From assembly GCF_004010195.1 (NCBI RefSeq), contig NC_057718.1:73903931-73925098 (forward strand): a stretch of 21,168 bases of DNA. The letters run 5' to 3'. Position 1 is the stretch's first letter. Every line of letters begins with the position of its first letter. This stretch comes from Chiloscyllium plagiosum (taxonomy: Eukaryota). The position numbers and the translations under genes were made by a program. Shown here piece after piece: positions 2,606 through 21,168 of this stretch. The notes beneath the pieces were generated by a model. The model was not told where the DNA came from. It saw nothing but the letters and a program-made list of their open reading frames with translations, and did no database searches.

Positions 2606-3502
2606 GAGTCGGGTGGGGTGGGGTGGGGTCGGGGCAGGCAAATATCGATGGGGGGTGGTGACAGGAATGGAGAGTACAGGGGAGATGTGGAAACAGGGAA
2701 GTGGACCAGTGGGGACAAGACCAAGGGGACAGGGTTCAGAGGAGTGATTAAAGGATTAAGGGGAAATTGAGTGAAGGGACCCATGGATGATAATGGGGGA
2801 AGCAGAAGGAGGGGAACCAGAGAATGGAGAGGGAAGGTCGGATGTGGAGGGTAAATGGACTGGAGGAGTGAAGGGAGATAAGATGAGGGAGACTGGGACC
2901 GGGCCAGGGGAACGATCAGGCAAGCTGGGCAGGGTCAGGGGGATGACCGGGCTAGTGGCAGCAGAGGGCAAAGAGGCTGACTGGGATCAGGCTGACGGGC
3001 AGGGCCAAGGGGAAGACTGGGACTGGACTGACGGGGGTGGTTGTTTTTGGGAGATGGGTGGGTGGAGGNNNNNNNNNNNNNNNNNNNNNNNNNNNNNNNN
3101 NNNNNNNNNNNNNNNNNNNNNNNNNNNNNNNNNNNNNNNNNNNNNNNNNNNNNNNNNNNNNNNNNNNNNNNNNNNNNNNNNNNNNNNNNNNNNNNNNNNN
3201 NNNNNNNNNNNNNNNNNNNNNNNNNNNNNNNNNNNNNNNNNNGGTGCTGGAGGTTGGGGGACTGAGGCAGTGAGGGACGAGGGGGATCAGATTGGTGGGG
3301 AAGTAGGGGCACCAAGACTGGGGCAGTAGGGGGGCCTGGGTGGGGGAGGCTGTAGAAGAATGCTGAAGATGCGTGAAGATGGTCCCCGGGAAGGGGAATG
3401 GGTGAAGTAGAGAGTAGTCAGGGGCATGTGTAGTGGGACGAAGAGAGGAGGAAATGGCTCTGTTGGGCTGGGGGCGAAGAGCCCTATGGCAGGGGGAACA
3501 GG
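2606..3502. repeat. G/purine-rich low-complexity tract spanning an assembly gap
   Basis: Strong G excess and C depletion on the + strand with many GGG/GGGG runs; no convincing ORF. Confidence 0.75.
3069..3242. other. Assembly gap (174 N)
   Basis: Run of N from 3069 to 3242. Confidence 1.
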
Positions 3503-6790: not shown

Positions 6791-9265
6791 TGAGCCTTCT
6801 GTTTTAGGAAAGGTTTTGGAAAGGATTATAAGAGATAAGATTTATAATCATCTACAAGCAACAGTTTGATTTCCGATAGTCAACATGGTTTCGTCAAGGG
6901 TAGGTCGTGTCTCACAAATCGAGTTTTTTGAGAAGGTGACCAAGCATGTAGATGAGGGCAGGGCAGTTGACGTGGTATACATGGACTTCAGTAAAGCCTT
7001 TGATAAGGTTCCACACAGTAGACTGTTGGAGAAAATGCAGAAGCATGGAATTGAGGGTGATTTCGCAGTTTGGATTAGAAACTGGCTTTCTCATAGCGAG
7101 CAGGGTAGACGTCCGGTACGTGGCCACTGCCATCCGACGCCTTAAAACAGTGGTGCTTGGACCCGGCGTAATGCATCAGTTGGAGGATTTTCAGGTGTGC
7201 GGTGGAATCCCATCTGCGCTCACCCCTGCCCGGACGGAATTTCACATTGGCCCCAAGATCCCGTATTTCCCCCAGGAACCTGTGCCCCACAACCTGAGCC
7301 GCCTCTGGAATTTTAGTTTTGTCCCCTTTAAGGACATAAAACAGTGGGCCCTGTATTGACTGCTGCTGCACATCGTCCACCTCTTCTCCCTCATCTACTG
7401 CCCGGATACCCCTTGACGTGCCCATTTGCCACCGGACAATGGGGATCCCCAGTGGCGGGCTCTCTATGCAGGAGTCCTCCCCCTTTCTCTCGGGGATCTG
7501 TGGTGGAGGGTGCTGCACGCAGCGGTCCCCTGCAACCGCAGATTGTGGTGGTTCACGGATTCCCAGCCCAACTGCTTGTTCTGTGGTGCTGTGGAGTCGG
7601 TGGACCATGTATATATCGGGTGTGGGTGCTAGCACTCTTTTTTTTGATTTACTCAAAAACCACCTCCTCTGTTTTTGGTTCACGCTCCTGATCTTTGGAC
7701 ACCCAGTACAGAGGGGGAGGGCAGGTCTGAAGACGACCTCGTGGGTATGCTCTTGGGCCTGGCCAAACTGGCCATAAACAGGTCGAGGCAGTGGGCCGTG
7801 GAGGGGGGTCGTTAGGGCCGATTGCCTGCCCCTCTTCCGCGGTTATGTTAGAGCCTGGGTGTCTCTGGAAAAGGAGCACGCGGTGTCCATCAACACCCTG
7901 GAGTTGTTCAGGGAGAGGTGGGCGCCGCAGGGAATGGAGTGTATTATTTCCCCCTCCAACTCTCTTTTGATTTAATCCCTGCCCTTCACTGTTTGATCGG
8001 ACAGCACTGCCCTTTGATGTGAAGGGCACTGCTTGTCACTGGCCACTTGGGTGTTTTCCTATCTTCCTGGTGGTGGAAATTGAATAAAGATTCGTGCACC
8101 TTGTGTCTTTCACTGTGTCTCACACCTGCACACACACACCATGGGTGCTGGGGACAAAATAAGCACTACTGCAGTTAGGTAGTAGTGTGGGGGTTTAAAA
8201 AAAAGAAAAAAAAAATAGAAACTGGCATTCTGAAAGAAGGCAGTGAGTGGTGGTTGATGGAAAATATTCAGCCTGGAGACCGGTCACTAGTGGTGTGCCA
8301 CAAGGATCTGTTTTGGGACCACTGCTGTTTGTCATTTTTATAAATGACTTAGACACAGGCATAAGTGGATGGATTAGTAAATTTGCAGATGACACTAAAG
8401 TTGGTGGAGTAGTAGACAGTTTGGAAGAATGTTACAGGTTGCAGGGGGACTTGGATAAACTGCAGAATTGGGCTGAGAGGTGGAAAATGGAGTTCAATGC
8501 AGCTAAATGTGAGGTGATGCACTTTGGGAAGAATAACAGGAAGGCAGAGTACTGGGTCAGTGGAAAGATTCTTGGTAGTGTGGTTGTGCAGAGGGATCTT
8601 GGAGTCCATGTACATAGACCCCTGACAGTTGCCACCCAGGTGGATTGTACGGTGTGTTAGGTTTCATTGGTAGAGGGATTGAGTTCCGGAGCCTCAATAT
8701 CATGCTGCAACTATACAAAACGCTGGTGCGGCCACACTTGGAATATTGTGTACAGTTCTGGTCCCCATATTTCGGGAATGATGTGGAAGCATTGAAAAAG
8801 GTGCAGAGGAGATTTACCAGGATGTTGCCTAGTCTGGAGGGAAGGTCTTATGAGGGAAGGCTGAGAGACTTGGATCTGTTCTCATTGGAAAGAAGGTGGG
8901 TAAGAGGGGATTTGATAGAGACATACAAGATGATCAGAGGATTAGCTAGGGTAGACAGTGAAAGTCTTTTTACTAGGATGATGACGTCAGCTTGTACGAG
9001 GGGGCATAACTATAAATTGAGGGGTGATAGATTTAAGACAGATGTCAGAGGAAAGTTCTTTACGCAGAGAATGGTAAGGTCGTGGAATGTCCTACCTGCT
9101 AATGTAGTCAACTCAGCCACATTAGGGAGATTTAAACAATCCTTAGATAAGCACATGGATGATTTTGGGATAGTGTAGGGGGATGAGCTGAGAATAGTTT
9201 GTAGGTTGGTGCAACATTGAGGTCCGAAGGGCCTGTTCTGCGTTGTATTATTCTATGTTCTATGT
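6791..9265 (+). mobile_element. Relatively young 5'-truncated CR1 LINE (RT domain to 3' tail), interrupted by Tx1 at 7092-8215
   Basis: Motifs QHGFVKGRSCLT, VYMDFSKAFDKVPH, SGVPQGSVLGPLLF, FADDTK and LYKTLVRPHLEYCVQFWSP (ORFs 6885, 8247, 8645); stop at 9178; tail ttctatgttctatg at 9251-9264. Confidence 0.95.
7092..8215 (+). mobile_element. 5'-truncated Tx1/L1-clade LINE (ORF2 C-terminus, 3' UTR, poly(A)) with 16-bp TSD
   Basis: GDLWWRVLHAAVPCNRRL and CCHC finger CLFCGAVESVDHVYIGC (zf-RVT type); LLGLAKLAINRSR..FRERW, stop ~7976; A-rich tail 8197-8215. TSD tagaaactggc(t/a)ttct at 7076-7091 and 8216-8231. Confidence 0.92.
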
Positions 9266-9804
9266 AAAAGCTCAGCAGGCCTGGCAGCATCTACGAAGAG
9301 AAGTCAGAGTTAATATTTTGCGTTCTGAGGAAGAGTTACTGAACTCCACGTTAACTCTGTATAGATGCTGCCAGACCTGCTGAGCTTTTCCAGCAACTTC
9401 TGTTTTAGTTAACAAACTTATTGATGTGTTTGGGGATAGATTTAGTAAGATAAAAGAAAGCTAACAGTTATATGTTTGAATTTCCAAAAATATATTCAGT
9501 CAGATGCCATGCAAAAGTGAGTATGCAACAATTGACTTTGTGGAATTGGGTGTAATATATTAGCATGGTTGGAGGATTGATCAATGGACAGAAAGAATGT
9601 AGAGATAATAAGGCTATGTGCAAGGTCTCAAATGCTTATTATCGATATGAATTACTATATGGGAGACATTGAGTGTAATGTATTCAAGTTTGGTGATACA
9701 AAGCTAGGTTGCTATGTTAACTCTAGGAATAACACTTATAGATAAGAGTAACAAGATGGAGTATCATGAAGAAATGAGGTTTATTCATTCTGGTCATCAG
9801 ACTA

Positions 9805-11419: not shown

Positions 11420-12572
11420 GGAGAAAATCAGAAACAAAAACAAGTTGCTGGAAAAGTTCAGCAGATCTGGCAGCATTTGTGAAGAGAAATCAGAGTTAAC
11501 ATTTTGGATCTGGTGACCCTTCCTCAGAGCTGATGGTAGCTAGGAAAATGTTGGTTTATATGCTGAAGATAGGGTGGGGGGGGAGAGGAGAGGATAAGGA
11601 ATAAATGATAGGTGGGGATAGAGCTGAAAGAGAGAGACAGACAAATGACTGGATAACAGTCTGGCTAGAAGAGTGAATAGTTGTTAATGGAGACTGTTAC
11701 TGGCTAACAATAAGTATTGTGTAATGGCAGACTGTGATAGTGAGATCTGGTGTGTGAGGTTGGGGGCAAGGACACAGGAGAGTTCACACCCTAAAATTAT
11801 TGAACTCTCCAAGTGGAAAATGATGTGATGTTCTTTCAACTTGCACTTAGCTTCACTGGAGCACTGCACAAGCCTGAGACAGAGATGTTGGCCAGGGAAC
11901 AGGTTGGCAGCTGGCATTAGCAGGCAGCTGGAAGCTCAGGGTCATTTTTTGCAGATAGAATGTAGGTGTTCTGTGAAATGGTCACCTAGTCCACACTTTG
12001 TTTCCCCAATCTAGAGGAGAACACATTGTGAACAGTAAACTGTATTATGTGAAGTGCCGGTAAAGTGTTGCTTCACCTGGAATATATGTTTGCTGCCTTG
12101 GATAATGAGGAAAGAGGAAATCGGCATGTGTTTCACCTTGAGCAATTGCAGCAGAAGGTGCTGTGGGGCCCTGAGGGCAGGGATGAGGGGTTGGTTGTTG
12201 GGAGTGAAGGAAGAGTGGACCAGTGCCCCAAAGGAAATGATTCCTGCGGAAAGGGGGCAAGGGAGGGGAATACAAGTCTGATGGTGGCATCTCGCTGAAG
12301 GTGGCAGAAATGGTAGCTGATGATCTCCTGGATGTGGATGCTGGTGGGATGGTAGGTAAGGATTGCTGATGTTGGAGGGAAGAGTGAGAGACAGGGCAGA
12401 AATACAGGGGATGGGTCAGGTCCAATGGAGACCACAATCTACAACTGTGTTCTGGTTGAGGAAGAAGGCGGATATTTTGGAGGTTTCCTCATCAAAATTG
12501 ACCTCATCAGAGCATATACAATGTGGACGGAGGAATGGGAGAATGGAATGGAGTCTTTACAGGAAGCAGAGT
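11420..12572 (-). mobile_element. PLE 3' half (RT C-terminus, GIY-YIG endonuclease, 3' UTR, pseudo-LTR), decayed
   Basis: Minus strand gives SCKDSIPFS (~12540-12565), YCSQCVLL*IGETKCGLGDHFTEHLHSICK (~11950-12040) and QCSSEAKCKLKEHHIIFHLE. Degenerate hammerhead CUGAGGA-A-GGGUC-ACCA-GAUCC-AAAA at ~11500-11527. Confidence 0.85.
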
Positions 12573-13043
12573 GAGATGCTGAATGTTCTGTACTCAAAGA
12601 TCTCTGCTTTATCCCTCTGCGCCCCCACCTTAATGAATTTCAGGCACAACATGATGTCAAACTCTTCTTCTGTTGTCTTTGCCTCTGTGTCCATATCTTT
12701 GGACGAGAGTCCTCTTCCTGTCCCACCGATTCCTTCGCCCAGCTCCAACACTCCCTCCACCTAGACCCCTGCCTTTGGCCTTTGACCTGCACTTGATCTG
12801 TTCATTGAGAACTGTCAACATTGGTCGCCTCAATTTCTCTGCACCCCTCACCCAATCCACACTGTCTCCCTCTGAACTGACTGTACTCTATGCGCTTAGA
12901 TCCAACCCTAACTTTGTTATTAAGCCTGCTGTTAAGGGTGGTGCTGTTATAGTCTGGCGTACTGACCTCTACATTGCAGTTTTTGGATTAGTGGTGCTGG
13001 AAAAGCACAGCAGGTTAGGCAGAATCCGAGGAGCAGTAAAATC

Positions 13044-13071
13044 AACGTTTCGGGCAAAAGCCCTTCATCAG
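13044..13071 (-). ncRNA. Minimal type I hammerhead ribozyme motif
   Basis: Minus strand reads CUGAUGA-A-GGGC-UUUU-GCCC-GAAACGUU, with the palindromic ACGU stem III typical of dimer-dependent PLE hammerheads; stem I is weak. Confidence 0.75.
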
Positions 13072-13554
13072 GGTTACAGGCAGAGTGCCTAAAGGGTGCA
13101 GAGATAAATGAGTGAAGGGTGGGGGTGGGGAGAAAGTAGCATAGAGTCTTCAGGGCAGAGGAAATGACCTGGGAGTTGCAGTGGGAGACGGACTCCCTGA
13201 GATTCTTGTAGAGAGAGGAGGAAAACCTCTTCAAGGCAGGCATCCTTGCAAGAGGATTCGCAGTAGGGATAAAATCAACTAGGTAAAAACAATGAGCCAT
13301 TAATCCAGAATCTGGTTTCCAGATCTGCAGTCATTGTTTTTACCTAGTTGATTTTATCCCTACTGCGAATCCTCTTGCAAGGATGCCTGCCTTGAAGAAG
13401 TTTTCCTCCTCTCTCTGAAAGAATCTCAGGGAGTCCCTCTCCCACTGCAACTCCCAGGTCATTTCCTCTGCCCTGAAGACTCTATGCTACTTTCTCCCCA
13501 CCCCCACCCTTCACTCATTTATCTCTCCACCCTTCAGGCACTCTGCCTGTATCC

Positions 13555-13581
13555 CTGATGAAGGGTTTTGTCCGAAACGTT
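13555..13581 (+). ncRNA. Minimal type I hammerhead ribozyme motif with weakened stem II
   Basis: CUGAUGA-A-GGG-UUUUG-UCC-GAAACGUU; counterpart of 13044-13071 with a 1-nt deletion and a C>T change. Confidence 0.65.
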
Positions 13582-15414
13582 GATTTTACTTCTCCTCGGA
13601 TGCTGCCTGACCTGTTGTGCTTTTCCAGCACCACTAATCCAGAATCTGGTTTCTAGTATCTGCAGTTATTGTTTTTACCTCTACATTGCAGAGGTGGAGT
13701 GCTAGCTCTCCGATACCTCCTCCTATCTCCTCCTGGACCATAACCTCCACATGGAATATCAGGCCATTGTGTCAACTATGGTCACTGACTTAATTTCATC
13801 TGCTGATCTTCCCCTAACCACTGCCTTCAAACGGATAGTCCCCCAGCCTCACATCTCATTCCTAAAATCCACAAACTGGATTTCCCAGCACACCCATTGT
13901 TTCAGTCTGCTCCTGTCCCACAGAACTCCCAAGTTCCTACCTTGACTTCCCTGCCCAGTTACATCCGTGATTCCTCTGACACTTAATCCAGTTTCAGAAT
14001 TTTCAGTTTGCAGTCATCTTCACAGTGACGTGCAATCCTTTACACATCCATCCCCCACCAGGACGGTCTCAGGGCTCGCAGCGTCTTCTTGGAGCAAAGG
14101 CCTGAACTGACCCAACCAATACCACCCTCCTCTGCTTGGCCAAGCTCATCCTCACCCTTAACTTCTCTTCTAACTCCTCTCAGTTTCTTCAGATCAGAGG
14201 GGTGACTATGGGTATGCACTTGGGCACCAGTTATGCGTGTCTCTGTGCGCGGTTTGTGGAACATTACTTGTTTCAGTTCTATTCTGGCCCCCCATCCACA
14301 ACTCTTTCTTCAATATATCATTGATACAATCAGTGCTCTTCCCTCTCTCGTCTGGAATTGGAAACGTTCATTGGTTTCACTTCCGATTCCCTCACTTTCA
14401 CCTGATACATCTCTGACTCTTCCCTTCCTTGACATCTGTTCCCATTTCTGAGGATAAACTGGCTACTAATATCCACTATAAACTCACCAACCCCCATTGC
14501 TGTCTGGACTACACATTCTCGCACTCTGCTTCTTGTAAAGACTGTATTCAATTATCCCAGTTTGTCCGTCTCCGTTGCAAATTCTGATAAGGCCAACTTC
14601 GACAAGGGAGCATCTGAGATTTCCACCTCCTTCCTCAAGCAAGAATTCCCCAGCACTGTTGTCAATAGTGCTCTCAACCAGGTCTGACCAATCTCCCACA
14701 CTTCTGCCTTCACACCATCTCTTTCCTCCCACAACAGTGATAGGGTTTCCCTCATCCTTATCCCCCATCCCACCAGCATCTACATCCAGATCATCAGCTG
14801 CTATTTCCATCACCTCCAGCGAGATGCCACTACCAGACAGACATTCCCCTCCTGAGTCTACAGGGACCGTTTGCTGTGGAACACCTGATCCACTCTTTCA
14901 TTCCCAATACCCACAACAGCCACATGGCACCTTTCCCTGCAAAAGCTGAAGGTGTAACACCTGCCCATTTACCTCTTCCTTCCTCTTTGTTCAGCAACAC
15001 TCCCCAGGGCCTTACCATTAAGTGTAGACGTCCTGCCCTGATTTGCCTTTCCAAAATGCAGCACCTCTTGTTTATCTAAATTAAACTTCATCTGCCAATT
15101 CTCATCTGATCAAGATCCCATTGTACTGTGAGGTAAGCTTCTTCACTGTCCACTGCACCTCCAATTTTGGTGTCATCTACAAGATATACCTCCTGTGTTC
15201 GCACTCAAATAATTTTATATAAATAAAGAAAAGCACTAGAACCAGCACCGATTCTTTTGGCACTCTACTGGTCACAGGCCTCCAGTCTGAAAAGCAACAG
15301 TCCATCACCATCCTCTGACTTCTACCTTCGAGCCAGTTCTGTATCCAAATGGCTAGTTCTCCCTCTATTCCATGTGATCTAACCTTGCGAACCAGTCTAC
15401 CATGAGGAATCTTG

Positions 15415-15686
15415 AAGAGGGCAGAGATTTAGGGTGAGAGGGGAAATAGTTAAAAGGGACCTAAGGGGAAATTATTTTACGCAAAAGGTGGTGTGTGTAT
15501 GGAATGAGCTGCAGTGGTGCAGGCTGGTACAAGTACAACCTTTTAAAAGGCATCTGGATGGATACATGAATAGGAAGGGTCGAGAGGGATATGGACCATG
15601 TGCTGGCAAATGGGGCTAGATTAATTTAGGATATCAGGTTGGCATGGACGAGTTGGATCGAAAGGTCTGTTTCTGTGCTATATATC
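15415..15686 (+). mobile_element. Short CR1 3'-end insertion
   Basis: RGEIVKRDLRGNYFTQKVVCVWNEL..FKRHLDGYM, then 3' UTR ggcatggacgagttgg...ggtctgtttctgtgcta. Probable TSD tgaggaatcttg (15403-15414) / tgagggaccttg (15687-15698). Confidence 0.8.
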
Positions 15687-16065
15687 TGAGGGACCTTGCG
15701 AAAGTCTTACTAAAATCCATGTAGACAACATTTACTGCTGTACTCTCATCAATCATCCTCATTGCCTCAAAAAAATCAATCAAATTAGTAAGACATGACA
15801 TGCCATGCACAAAGTCATAGTGACTGTCCTTAATTAAGTCATGCTTTTCCAAATGCGCATAAATGCTACCCCTAAGAAACCTCATCAGTAGCTTCCCGAC
15901 CACTGATGTGGAGACGCACTGGTCTATAATTTCCTGGATTATCCCTATTTCCCTTCTTAAACAGAGGAACAGCATTAACTAATTGCCAGTCCTCAGGGAC
16001 CTTGCCAATGGCTAGAGGGGATATCAAGATTTTGGTCAAGCCCTCAGTAATCTTCTCCCTTGGCC

Positions 16066-16163
16066 ACTTGATAACCTGGGGTAGATCCCATCAAAGCCTG
16101 GGGACTTATCCAACTTGATAACCTGGGGTAGATCCCATCAAAGCCTGGGGACTTATCCAACTT
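16066..16163. repeat. Perfect 47-bp tandem duplication
   Basis: acttgataacctggggtagatcccatcaaagcctggggacttatcca at 16066-16112 and 16113-16159, with a third actt at 16160-16163. Confidence 0.95.
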
Positions 16164-16304
16164 AATGCTCTTGAAGAACATTAACATTACTTCTTTCTTG
16201 ACCTCAAAATGCCTTAGCAGATTAGCGTGCGCCACACTAATTTCACTACCTGCCATGTCCTTCCCCTTGTGAATATCGACCCAAGGTATTCATTTAGGAG
16301 TTTT

Positions 16305-19019: not shown

Positions 19020-19660
19020 TCATAGAATCTTAGGAGTTTAAGATGCACGAGACCATTTGACCTCTTGTGTCTGTGCTGACTAAAATGTTACCCAATTTAA
19101 TCCCACTTTCCAGCTCTTTGTCCATTGCCCTGCAAATTGCAACATTTGTGGTGCATATCCAGGTGCTATGTTGAAATATAATATTGGTTTCTGCCTTGAT
19201 CAGCATTGAGATGGGAAGATGCCACCATACTCTGAATGATAAAAGGTCGCAACTGACAAAGAATGAGACAGGTGTTATTTTAAATCTATGCATTTTTGAT
19301 GATGTCTTCTACAGCAAAAAAAATTGTTTCCAAATAGTTTCTTAATTTTATATCACTTAATTAACACTCGTAAAGTCTTCTATTCCAAAGCGGAGAAAGT
19401 CATGACTGCAGATGCTGGAGATAAGCATTGAAAAGTGTAGCACTGGAAAAGCACAGCAGGTTAGGCAGCTGTGGAGCAGGAGGGTCTACGTTTCAGGCGC
19501 ATAAGCACTTCATGTGTTCCAAAGAGAGACCCCAAACTATCCAGTCTCCTCTTTATAGCTAAAACCTTTTAGTGCTGACTCTATCATTGTATCTCTAGTT
19601 TAATCACATCATCCTGCATCATAGTGACCAGAATAAGTGATAGCATGAGCCTTGTTCTAT
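19020..19660 (-). mobile_element. Old CR1 3' portion, interrupted at 19391-19514
   Basis: tcatagaatcttagg...gaccatttgacctcttgtgtctgtgctg is the reverse of a CR1 3' UTR; decayed LDSLG.SLE-like remnant at ~19515-19550. Confidence 0.6.
19391..19514 (-). mobile_element. Solo PLE pseudo-LTR fragment with TSD
   Basis: gactgcagatgctggaga...ctggaaaagcacagcaggttaggcagc is homologous to 1008-1214 and 12980-13680. TSD tattccaaag (19381-19390) / tgttccaaag (19515-19524). Confidence 0.75.
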
Positions 19661-19830: not shown

Positions 19831-20063
19831 ATTTGAACAAGATTTTTCTTTTTGCAATTTGATTCTGATTTTTGCTAAAATTAATGTAAATTTATTGAGA
19901 GTTAATAGGCAAATAATTAAATTTATCCTTTTATTTGAATTATTATTTGCCTATTAACTCTCAATAAATTTACATTAATTTTAGCAAAAATCAGAATCAA
20001 ATTGCAAAAAGAAAAATCTTGTTCAAATACTTAATTAAATTTATCCTTTTATTTGAATTATTA
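19831..20063. repeat. Perfect 87-bp inverted repeat with a 24-bp spacer, plus a 32-bp direct duplication of the spacer region
   Basis: 19831-19917 is the exact reverse complement of 19942-20028; taattaaatttatccttttatttgaattatta occurs at 19914-19945 and 20032-20063. Confidence 0.95.
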
Positions 20064-20797: not shown

Positions 20798-21168
20798 AGA
20801 GCTGAAAATGTGTTGCTGGAAAACCACAGCAGGTCAGGCAGCATCCAAGGAGCAGGAGAATCGACGTTTCGGGCATGAGCTCTTCAGGAATGAGGAAAGT
20901 GTGCCCAGCAGGCTAAGATAAAAGGTAGGGAGGAGGGACTTGAGGTACGGGCATTGGAAATGCGATTGGTGGAAGGAGGTCAAGGTGAGGGTGATAAGCC
21001 GGAGTGGGGGTAGGGGCGGAGAGGTCAGGAAGAAGATTGCAGGTTAGGAAGGCGGTGCTGAGTTCGAGGGATTTGACTGAGACAAGGTGGGGGGAGGGGA
21101 AATGAGGAAACTGGAGAAATCTGAGTTCATCCCTTGTGGTTGGAGGGTCCCTAGGCGGAAGATGAGGC
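20798..21168 (-). mobile_element. PLE 3' end (GIY-YIG C-terminus, 3' UTR, pseudo-LTR), running off the window
   Basis: Minus strand gives LIFRLGTLQPQGMNSDFSSFLIS (~21100-21166). 20798-20880 is nearly identical to 1007-1089. Hammerhead boxes CUGAAGA..GAAACGUC at 20863-20887 have a 3-nt stem II deletion. Confidence 0.88.

Follow-up and report, generated by a model that had tools for sequence, protein, structure and literature searches.

A 727-base insertion at positions 12965–13691 of a 21,168-nucleotide stretch of Chiloscyllium plagiosum DNA (the window) is very probably a deleted derivative of a Penelope-like element (PLE) that was inserted in a known inverted form. It is a shortened PLE with both ends and a hammerhead motif, arranged as a mirror-image pair and nested in an older PLE copy. 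Since this layout is the usual outcome of PLE insertion, the insertion is probably a dead remnant, as opposed to a new family of circular RNAs. It likely represents a low-copy, internally deleted, non-autonomous PLE that occupies one or a few loci. The insertion and its target comprise the following features.

12596–14972 (+): target, an older decayed PLE RT open reading frame (tblastn with P0025, P0012, P0020 and P0024; translation)
12950–13243 (−): frame of 98 codons that opens at the PLE start codon and spans the join and the hammerhead; PLE protein match in codons 1–32 only
12965–12979: left copy of the target-site duplication (TSD); the final 3 letters could also be assigned to the left-arm end
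12977–13295 (−): left arm, the deleted unit in inverted orientation and lacking the tail
13044–13071 (−): hammerhead motif in the left arm (minimal type I) with intact core, 4-bp stem II and GUU triplet
13147–13148 (−): left-arm join, where the 5' body meets the 3' UTR, with the letters of 13478/13479
13296–13330: unpaired 35-nt centre of the head-to-head pair
13297–13345 (+): upstream 5'-truncated pseudo-LTR and tail (terminal repeat), without hammerhead
13346–13478 (+): PLE 5' body, made up of the leader and codons 1–32 from the ATG at 13383; stop at 13416–13418 in the right arm
13479–13554 (+): pyrimidine-rich remnant of a PLE 3' UTR; different sequence precedes it in its native context, loose ends in contigs
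13555–13581 (+): hammerhead motif in the right arm (minimal type I), with its cut predicted at 13581/13582
13582–13648 (+): remaining pseudo-LTR, common to many other PLE ends and with the highest contig depth
13649–13680 (+): tail, in the right arm only; its last 4 letters overlap the TSD
13677–13691: right copy of the TSD, a 15-bp repeat of 12965–12979

As the first-pass annotation had claimed, the whole insertion is flanked by a TSD, whose two copies match at 15/15 letters (rough chance ~4e-7). The annotation had also described a recurrence of 13301–13345 at 13635–13680 with a period of 334 nt, and the terminal repeat 13297–13345 indeed returns at 13631–13680 (46/50 columns, one gap), the period being 334 upstream of the gap and 335 downstream. 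The right half is, as stated there, a terminally redundant unit with one hammerhead (core at 13555, plus strand), and the left arm is an inverted second copy: read on the minus strand, 12977–13295 is 95.3% identical to 13331–13648 over 319 columns, with a hammerhead core at 13071. The two arms differ at 13 positions in 311 columns (4.2%). They are identical in the 68 columns nearest to the centre, and the differences are spread over the rest of the arms on both sides of the join. The term inverted dimer holds for the two opposite-strand copies, but these amount to 0.95 and 1.15 units and do not form a head-to-tail dimer. Tandem Repeats Finder detected no array at the insertion locus. The unit is 334 nt long with a GC content of 48.5%, and the tail measures 32–39 nt, depending on the choice of the left-arm end. 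Counted on the sequence, the right end of the insertion lies 113–117 nt past the start of stem II.

The PLE-insertion features sought at the locus are all present: a pseudo-LTR in partial tandem, an inverted 5'-truncated copy, a tail at one end, a TSD and a hammerhead motif. The available text of Craig et al. 2021 (PMC8557442) describes PLE pLTRs that result from partial tandems, an adjacent inverted truncated copy and a 30–40-nt tail that is often found at one end only. The same layout with 8–10-bp TSDs is given in the available part of Arkhipova et al. 2013 (PMC3846280), where one derivative with an internal deletion has inverted pLTRs and a TSD of 10 bp, and what is available of Goubert et al. 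2022 (PMC8969392) summarises it alike. The insertion resembles the EN+ PLE insertions of the first two accounts in its pseudo-LTR, inverted copy, one-end tail, TSD and location within another element. It differs from them, as far as they are available, in the loss of nearly the whole ORF, in its shark host and in its 15-bp TSD with 4 and 3 letters overlapping the ends. Since nearly all of the ORF is missing, the inverted copy covers almost the entire unit.

The target frame shows the expected interruption and duplication, since the alignment of P0012 breaks off at 12978 (12817–12978, residues 269–322) and resumes at 13679 (13679–13825, residues 319–367). P0025 aligns to the target at 12817–12978 and 13837–14882, and translation reveals a remnant of a CX4CxxC linker near the end of the target PLE frame.

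The join 13478/13479 on the plus strand has the same letters in the left arm, at 13148/13147 on the minus strand. The ATG at 13383 opens the peptide MPALKKFSSSL; the frame is then stopped in the right arm and open in the left arm. The annotation had read the unit as a fusion of a PLE 5' region beginning at this ATG to a PLE 3' UTR, and both protein matches and contig pieces bounded at 13478/13479 agree with that reading. Of 11 candidates for the 50 residues upstream of the join, one matched: P0001, a Chiloscyllium punctatum protein with 91% identity over 32 residues and divergence afterwards; P0001 has 59 relatives in a search of 1.84 billion representatives. The left-arm frame could be aligned to 7/61 proteins, the seventh of which is confined to codons 1–23. 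The annotation had considered that the join might be contiguous in a full-length PLE; all six proteins that reach it (6/6, all from sharks) continue differently past codon 32, with the parent sequence and not that of the unit. Judged by these alignments and by the read contigs described below, the join is not native to the PLE. Beyond codon 32, the 98-codon frame is likely a chance open frame. Relatives of the fused peptide were sought among 2 candidates, none of which scored, and in Atlas, which gave no usable match; both are weak negatives.

P0025 is a protein of 882 aa with a C-terminal GIY-YIG domain and a CX4CxxC linker between RT and endonuclease. It is 29% identical to P0001 over 127 aa (residues 36–162 of P0001), which links P0001 to a full-length protein. 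None of 153 candidates scored in the search for a full-length parent among long proteins, and Pfam gave no match above cut-off for six window frames and P0001. A CX2-5CxxC linker marks Neptune and Nematis in the available text of Craig et al. 2021 (PMC8557442), and the parent PLE looks Neptune-like, a clade that is read from the linker of a relative; Poseidon had been considered for the parent and was dropped once the linker was seen. The single ORF for RT and GIY-YIG endonuclease is missing from the unit except for 32 codons, the lost part being roughly 2.5–3 kb as estimated from P0025. The unit is non-autonomous, as the annotation had it, and carries the insertion marks of a PLE (TSD, tail, inverted copy). 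Motif searches gave 0 matches for the join in metagenome contigs and 0 matches for the 3' UTR in viral contigs. The 5' motif was matched at 25 + 3 loci, which we rejected as chance because each match is confined to 20–26 letters around the motif.

Both hammerhead motifs resemble the minimal hammerheads of metazoan PLEs, as described in the available text of Cervera and de la Pena 2014 (PMC4209133), in their intact core, the extra base between 9 and 10.1, the G10.1–C11.1 pair and the absence of helix III. They differ from these in stem I, which is mismatched in both copies, and stem II has 4 bp as opposed to 7–8 bp in the Schistosoma families. In the same text, minimal hammerheads require a same-sense partner, and opposite-strand pairs occur 100–700 bp apart. 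Stem I of the left arm has a C–A mismatch at the second pair. In the right arm, pairs 2 and 3 are mismatched, and stem II with its loop has lost one base and changed another. At 13553, each of the three DNA-type runs has T in >99% of contig depth, and so do 22/22 RNA reads; both arms carry C at the equivalent position, which leaves the second pair of stem I mismatched. A stem I of four pairs results from T at 13553 together with A at 13552, the letter of the left arm. Since the mismatch is common to both arms, the motif of the template was already impaired. With E values of up to 1 allowed, Rfam returned 11 matches, none of which reaches the gathering score or is a hammerhead, and in the right arm the hammerhead motif is not the lowest-energy fold. 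An argument from the GUU as opposed to a GUC triplet was dropped, as C accounts for only 36–52% of contig depth at 13581.

Each arm ends before a second hammerhead; the upstream cut site would lie another ~50 and 85 nt away. With a single hammerhead and ~1.15 units per strand, excision of a monomer is impossible at this locus. The read-through RNA is predicted to form a hairpin of >300 bp (−627 kcal/mol, 91% paired). Because such a hairpin would bury the motif, we predict the locus to be inert.

The 5' and 3' halves are both abundant in read contigs of three organisms, where they mostly occur apart. The contig figures rest on 24 pieces listed of 96,505 and 15 joints listed of 87. Two of the 24 listed pieces end at 13478 and four start at 13479, and two of these six carry 40 and 68 unmatched letters beyond the join; in 47 contigs of run X9, other letters are found upstream of 13479. 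The join is crossed by 2/24 listed pieces, both of which are gapped and neither of which is the window's exact join. Record 21 of run X9 matches 76 + 32 letters with 4 other letters and 9 gap letters (depth 18.7), and record 13 of run X14 matches 26 letters on the 5' side, below the bridging rule of the tool, with 3 gap letters (depth 23.2). Going by these two pieces, related fusions exist in two organisms. A high-depth contig bridging the join is absent among the 24 listed pieces. A depth of 18.7, compared with the locus-specific 6.17 in X9, suggests few copies, depth being no copy number. A high-copy unit would be expected among the longest pieces; since contigs drop rare variants, the missing exact join proves nothing in itself.

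Eight of the 15 listed joints lead from the 5' body (13404–13459) to 13478–13581, with breakpoints other than that of the window and depths of 10–80. Six more connect the tail end at 13344–13346 to 13566–13601, and one lies within the 3' part; most listed joints are marked 'between: not known'. Many independent low-copy fusions would fit these joints better than one amplified unit. The annotation had rated the insertion as the best candidate for an undescribed family; among the pieces and joints listed, the gapped, low-depth crossings and the varied breakpoints fit such a family less well. We found no description of this shark unit in the literature searched, and the supplement of Li et al. 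2026 (10.64898/2026.07.22.740005) may contain one. A joint that goes back from 13635 to 13301 was discarded as evidence of a concatemer, for it is the terminal repeat itself and expected of any partial-tandem PLE. Both arms differ from the family majority at 13357, 13511, 13513 and 13553, and these four common letters indicate that one template gave rise to both. In the poly(A) single-cell run X21, 1,881 of ~13 million records matched, in both orientations and 91 of them at ≥99% likeness, with no joints and no piled ends at the predicted cut. Since a poly(A) library would miss circles, this run is uninformative on expression.

As to the course of events, we lean towards one insertion of an internally deleted, non-coding PLE, in which the join pre-existed in a linear source RNA and both cut ends were primed. 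A deletion or template switch at the source locus would first have removed ~2.5–3 kb of the ORF. The join-bearing RNA would have been bound in trans by the RT and endonuclease of a full-length relative, and the endonuclease would have cut both strands of the older PLE, ~11–15 bp apart. Both cut ends may then have primed cDNA synthesis at two family start sites that bound the tail, helped by microhomologies of 3–4 nt. Both cDNAs would have ended in the upstream pseudo-LTR and been joined head to head, and the arms would have drifted by ~2% each afterwards. The hammerhead comes from the pLTR, carried its mismatch in the template already and was likely dispensable for insertion.

Priming on both strands is our preferred mechanism, which would carry over from a Poseidon element to a Neptune-like one. 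Frangieh et al. 2024 (PMC11167929) showed for the PLE of Anolis, PAc, that both target strands are cut and extended, that two RT starts bound the tail and that hammerhead mutants still insert in vitro. The unit resembles PAc in having two end sites that bound the tail and in the distance from stem II to the outer end, the anole start being at 111–118. PAc differs from the unit in that it is autonomous, belongs to the Poseidon clade and has its ORF start within the hammerhead; here, the conserved start lies past the tail, and the relatives have a linker of the Neptune/Nematis type. The window contains a second head-to-head insertion of PLE ends, from another family, at 994–1228. It has a 14-bp TSD and a tail on the plus arm only, and its arms end at sites homologous to those of the 12965–13691 insertion. 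It is these tail-bounding ends in the window, together with the anole RT starts, that lead us to prefer both-strand priming. The conserved inner site is where the left arm stops, which favours two independent primings on a join-bearing RNA.

The anole RT needed ~55–60 nt downstream of its start (PMC11167929). Given this need for ~57 nt, the source RNA likely ran on from the tail into a further 5' body. Such an RNA could come from a partial tandem as well as from an array or a circle, and this point speaks for a bolder reading. The eight listed joints from the 5' body to the 3' part and that of the window have their breakpoints 59–133 nt past the tail, a distance to which the tool's way of listing may contribute and which is at or beyond the ~57 nt needed by the anole RT. 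This bolder reading, which we consider doubtful, is that shark PLEs repeatedly shed mini-elements with exactly the cis-signals of the RT, and that the 334-nt unit was re-mobilised from a tandem or circle as an incipient retrozyme formed by ORF deletion and not out of a bare pLTR. The cis-signals would on this doubtful reading be the 3' UTR, the hammerhead, the tail and 60–130 nt of 5' body past the tail.

The join may instead have been made during this insertion, by a jump of the RT from 13479 to another RNA at 13478. The left arm would then be a fold-back copy of the first cDNA that was cut at the tail, and there would be no source locus. We regard this as rather unlikely, but of the alternatives it survives best. 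It predicts the same sequence as a pre-existing join, and an exact bridging contig is absent among the 24 listed pieces, as noted. Partial tandems arise from joining successive cDNAs, and the six listed joints that leave the tail end can be counted in its favour. So can the self-priming by which Arkhipova et al. 2013 (PMC3846280) interpret head-to-head palindromes and the endonuclease resolution to which Craig et al. 2021 (PMC8557442) ascribe the tail, both in the text available. However, the tail-less end lies at the same site in both TSD-flanked insertions, matching two fixed RT starts, the centre has no clear fold-back microhomology, and near-identical fusions are found in two organisms. 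The annotation's statement that the join predates the inversion stands insofar as the join is the same in both arms; it need not predate the insertion event, since the second arm may be copied from the first cDNA.

Animal retrozymes are tandem repeats with type I hammerheads, which are cut to monomers and circularised (available text of Cervera and de la Pena 2020, PMC7229834). In the available part of their preprint, Li et al. 2026 (10.64898/2026.07.22.740005) propose a PLE origin for animal retrozymes generally, define an active element by the motif in two consecutive units, admit minimal hammerheads and report retrozymes averaging 363 bp in the one chondrichthyan sampled. The annotation's suggestion that the unit derives from the PLE itself is backed by both halves but is not new, given the general proposal of Li et al. 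Measured against the available text of both papers, the unit is like a non-LTR retrozyme in its monomer of 150–450 nt, GC <50%, non-coding character, TSD of >4 bp, type I hammerhead and kinship with PLEs. Unlike retrozymes, it has no two same-strand hammerheads in head-to-tail order (PMC7229834) and its ribozyme is minimal and mismatched, not canonical; it also carries an ORF start in addition to a pLTR.

It is improbable that there is a true non-LTR retrozyme family to which the 334-nt unit belongs as monomer, with arrays elsewhere, self-cleavage of dimers, circularisation and reinsertion by a PLE RT. Its length and GC content fit (PMC7229834, text available), as do the chondrichthyan average and the acceptance of minimal hammerheads by Li et al. 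In a circle, the tail would be followed by the 5' body, which the anole RT requires (PMC11167929), and two contigs cross at or near the join. Nevertheless, the arms stop short of the upstream cut site, each strand has a single hammerhead, the locus holds no array, and the stem I mismatch in both arms points to an impaired template ribozyme. The circular fold of the unit is unremarkable (z −1.1; 5/60 shuffles as good), the fusion breakpoints vary and their depths are low. The retrozyme-like circular or concatemeric RNA that the annotation proposed is thus not supported; the layout is of the PLE type, the hammerheads lie on opposite strands with a common stem I mismatch, and no high-depth bridge is listed. 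A further parallel is offered by the non-autonomous Chlamys PLEs such as MRC1 (Craig et al. 2021, PMC8557442), likewise a non-coding PLE derivative with pLTRs that is mobilised in trans. MRC1 differs, in the text available, in being highly active, often in head-to-tail arrays, and in belonging to a clade mostly without canonical hammerheads.

Still less probable is the insertion of a long PLE with long inverted arms, after which one arm suffered a DNA deletion and gene conversion or hairpin repair carried it over to the second arm. Microhomology-mediated deletions have disabled many Penelope copies (Arkhipova et al. 2013, PMC3846280, in the part available), and the identity of the arms near the centre would agree with conversion. 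Yet this course requires two extra events, the differences elsewhere are spread on either side of the join, and clear microhomology is absent at the join. An assembly artefact in the form of a fold-back chimera has next to no probability: long inverted repeats are difficult to assemble (PMC8557442, text available) and the window contains an N gap near 3100–3250, but the arms differ by 4.2%, the TSD is perfect, and a contig of run X9 matches 13658–13740 (83 letters) with 0 differences at depth 6.17, so that the right junction is no assembly error.

The insertion neatly illustrates how a deleted PLE copy looks in the known inverted layout, and it is of modest mechanistic use. Two TSD-flanked insertions end at the same tail-bounding sites, in agreement with the RT starts determined in vitro. 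The present copy was inserted with its hammerhead mismatched, in line with the in vitro mutants. Should arrays or a circle of the unit be found, they would reveal a route from an ORF-deleted PLE to a retrozyme and map the minimal cis-signals for the mobilisation of vertebrate PLEs.

Further PLE copies are found in the window. The 994–1228 insertion is centred on a hammerhead and nested in an older minus-strand PLE ORF (158–1723); both TSD-flanked insertions of the window thus lie within older PLE ORFs, with 2–3 letters of TSD overlap at the tail-less end. The target PLE is itself inverted (~11420–15000), 12112–12576 on the minus strand matching 14519–14977 at 67%, and a minus-strand pLTR end lies near 11426–11530. 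An older inverted pair at 9263–9405 consists of PLE-end fragments of a third family; a TSD was sought for it and not found. Single minus-strand PLE ends occur at 19392–19513 (full tail) and 20798–21168 (inner-site end, part of stem II lost). The N run (assembly gap) at ~3070–3245 is located inside a purine/pyrimidine-skewed stretch resembling a PLE 3' UTR.

The window also holds other features. An AT-rich perfect palindrome at 19831–20063 has 87-nt arms, which are 100% complementary, and a 24-nt spacer; Rfam gave only sub-threshold miRNA-like matches for it, and an exact 32-nt repeat of its centre follows it. RT-like ORF fragments are located at 6870–7145, 8247–9178 and 15177–16289 and presumably resemble CR1/L2 LINEs. 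A perfect 47-nt tandem duplication is found at 16066–16159, within a LINE-like ORF fragment.
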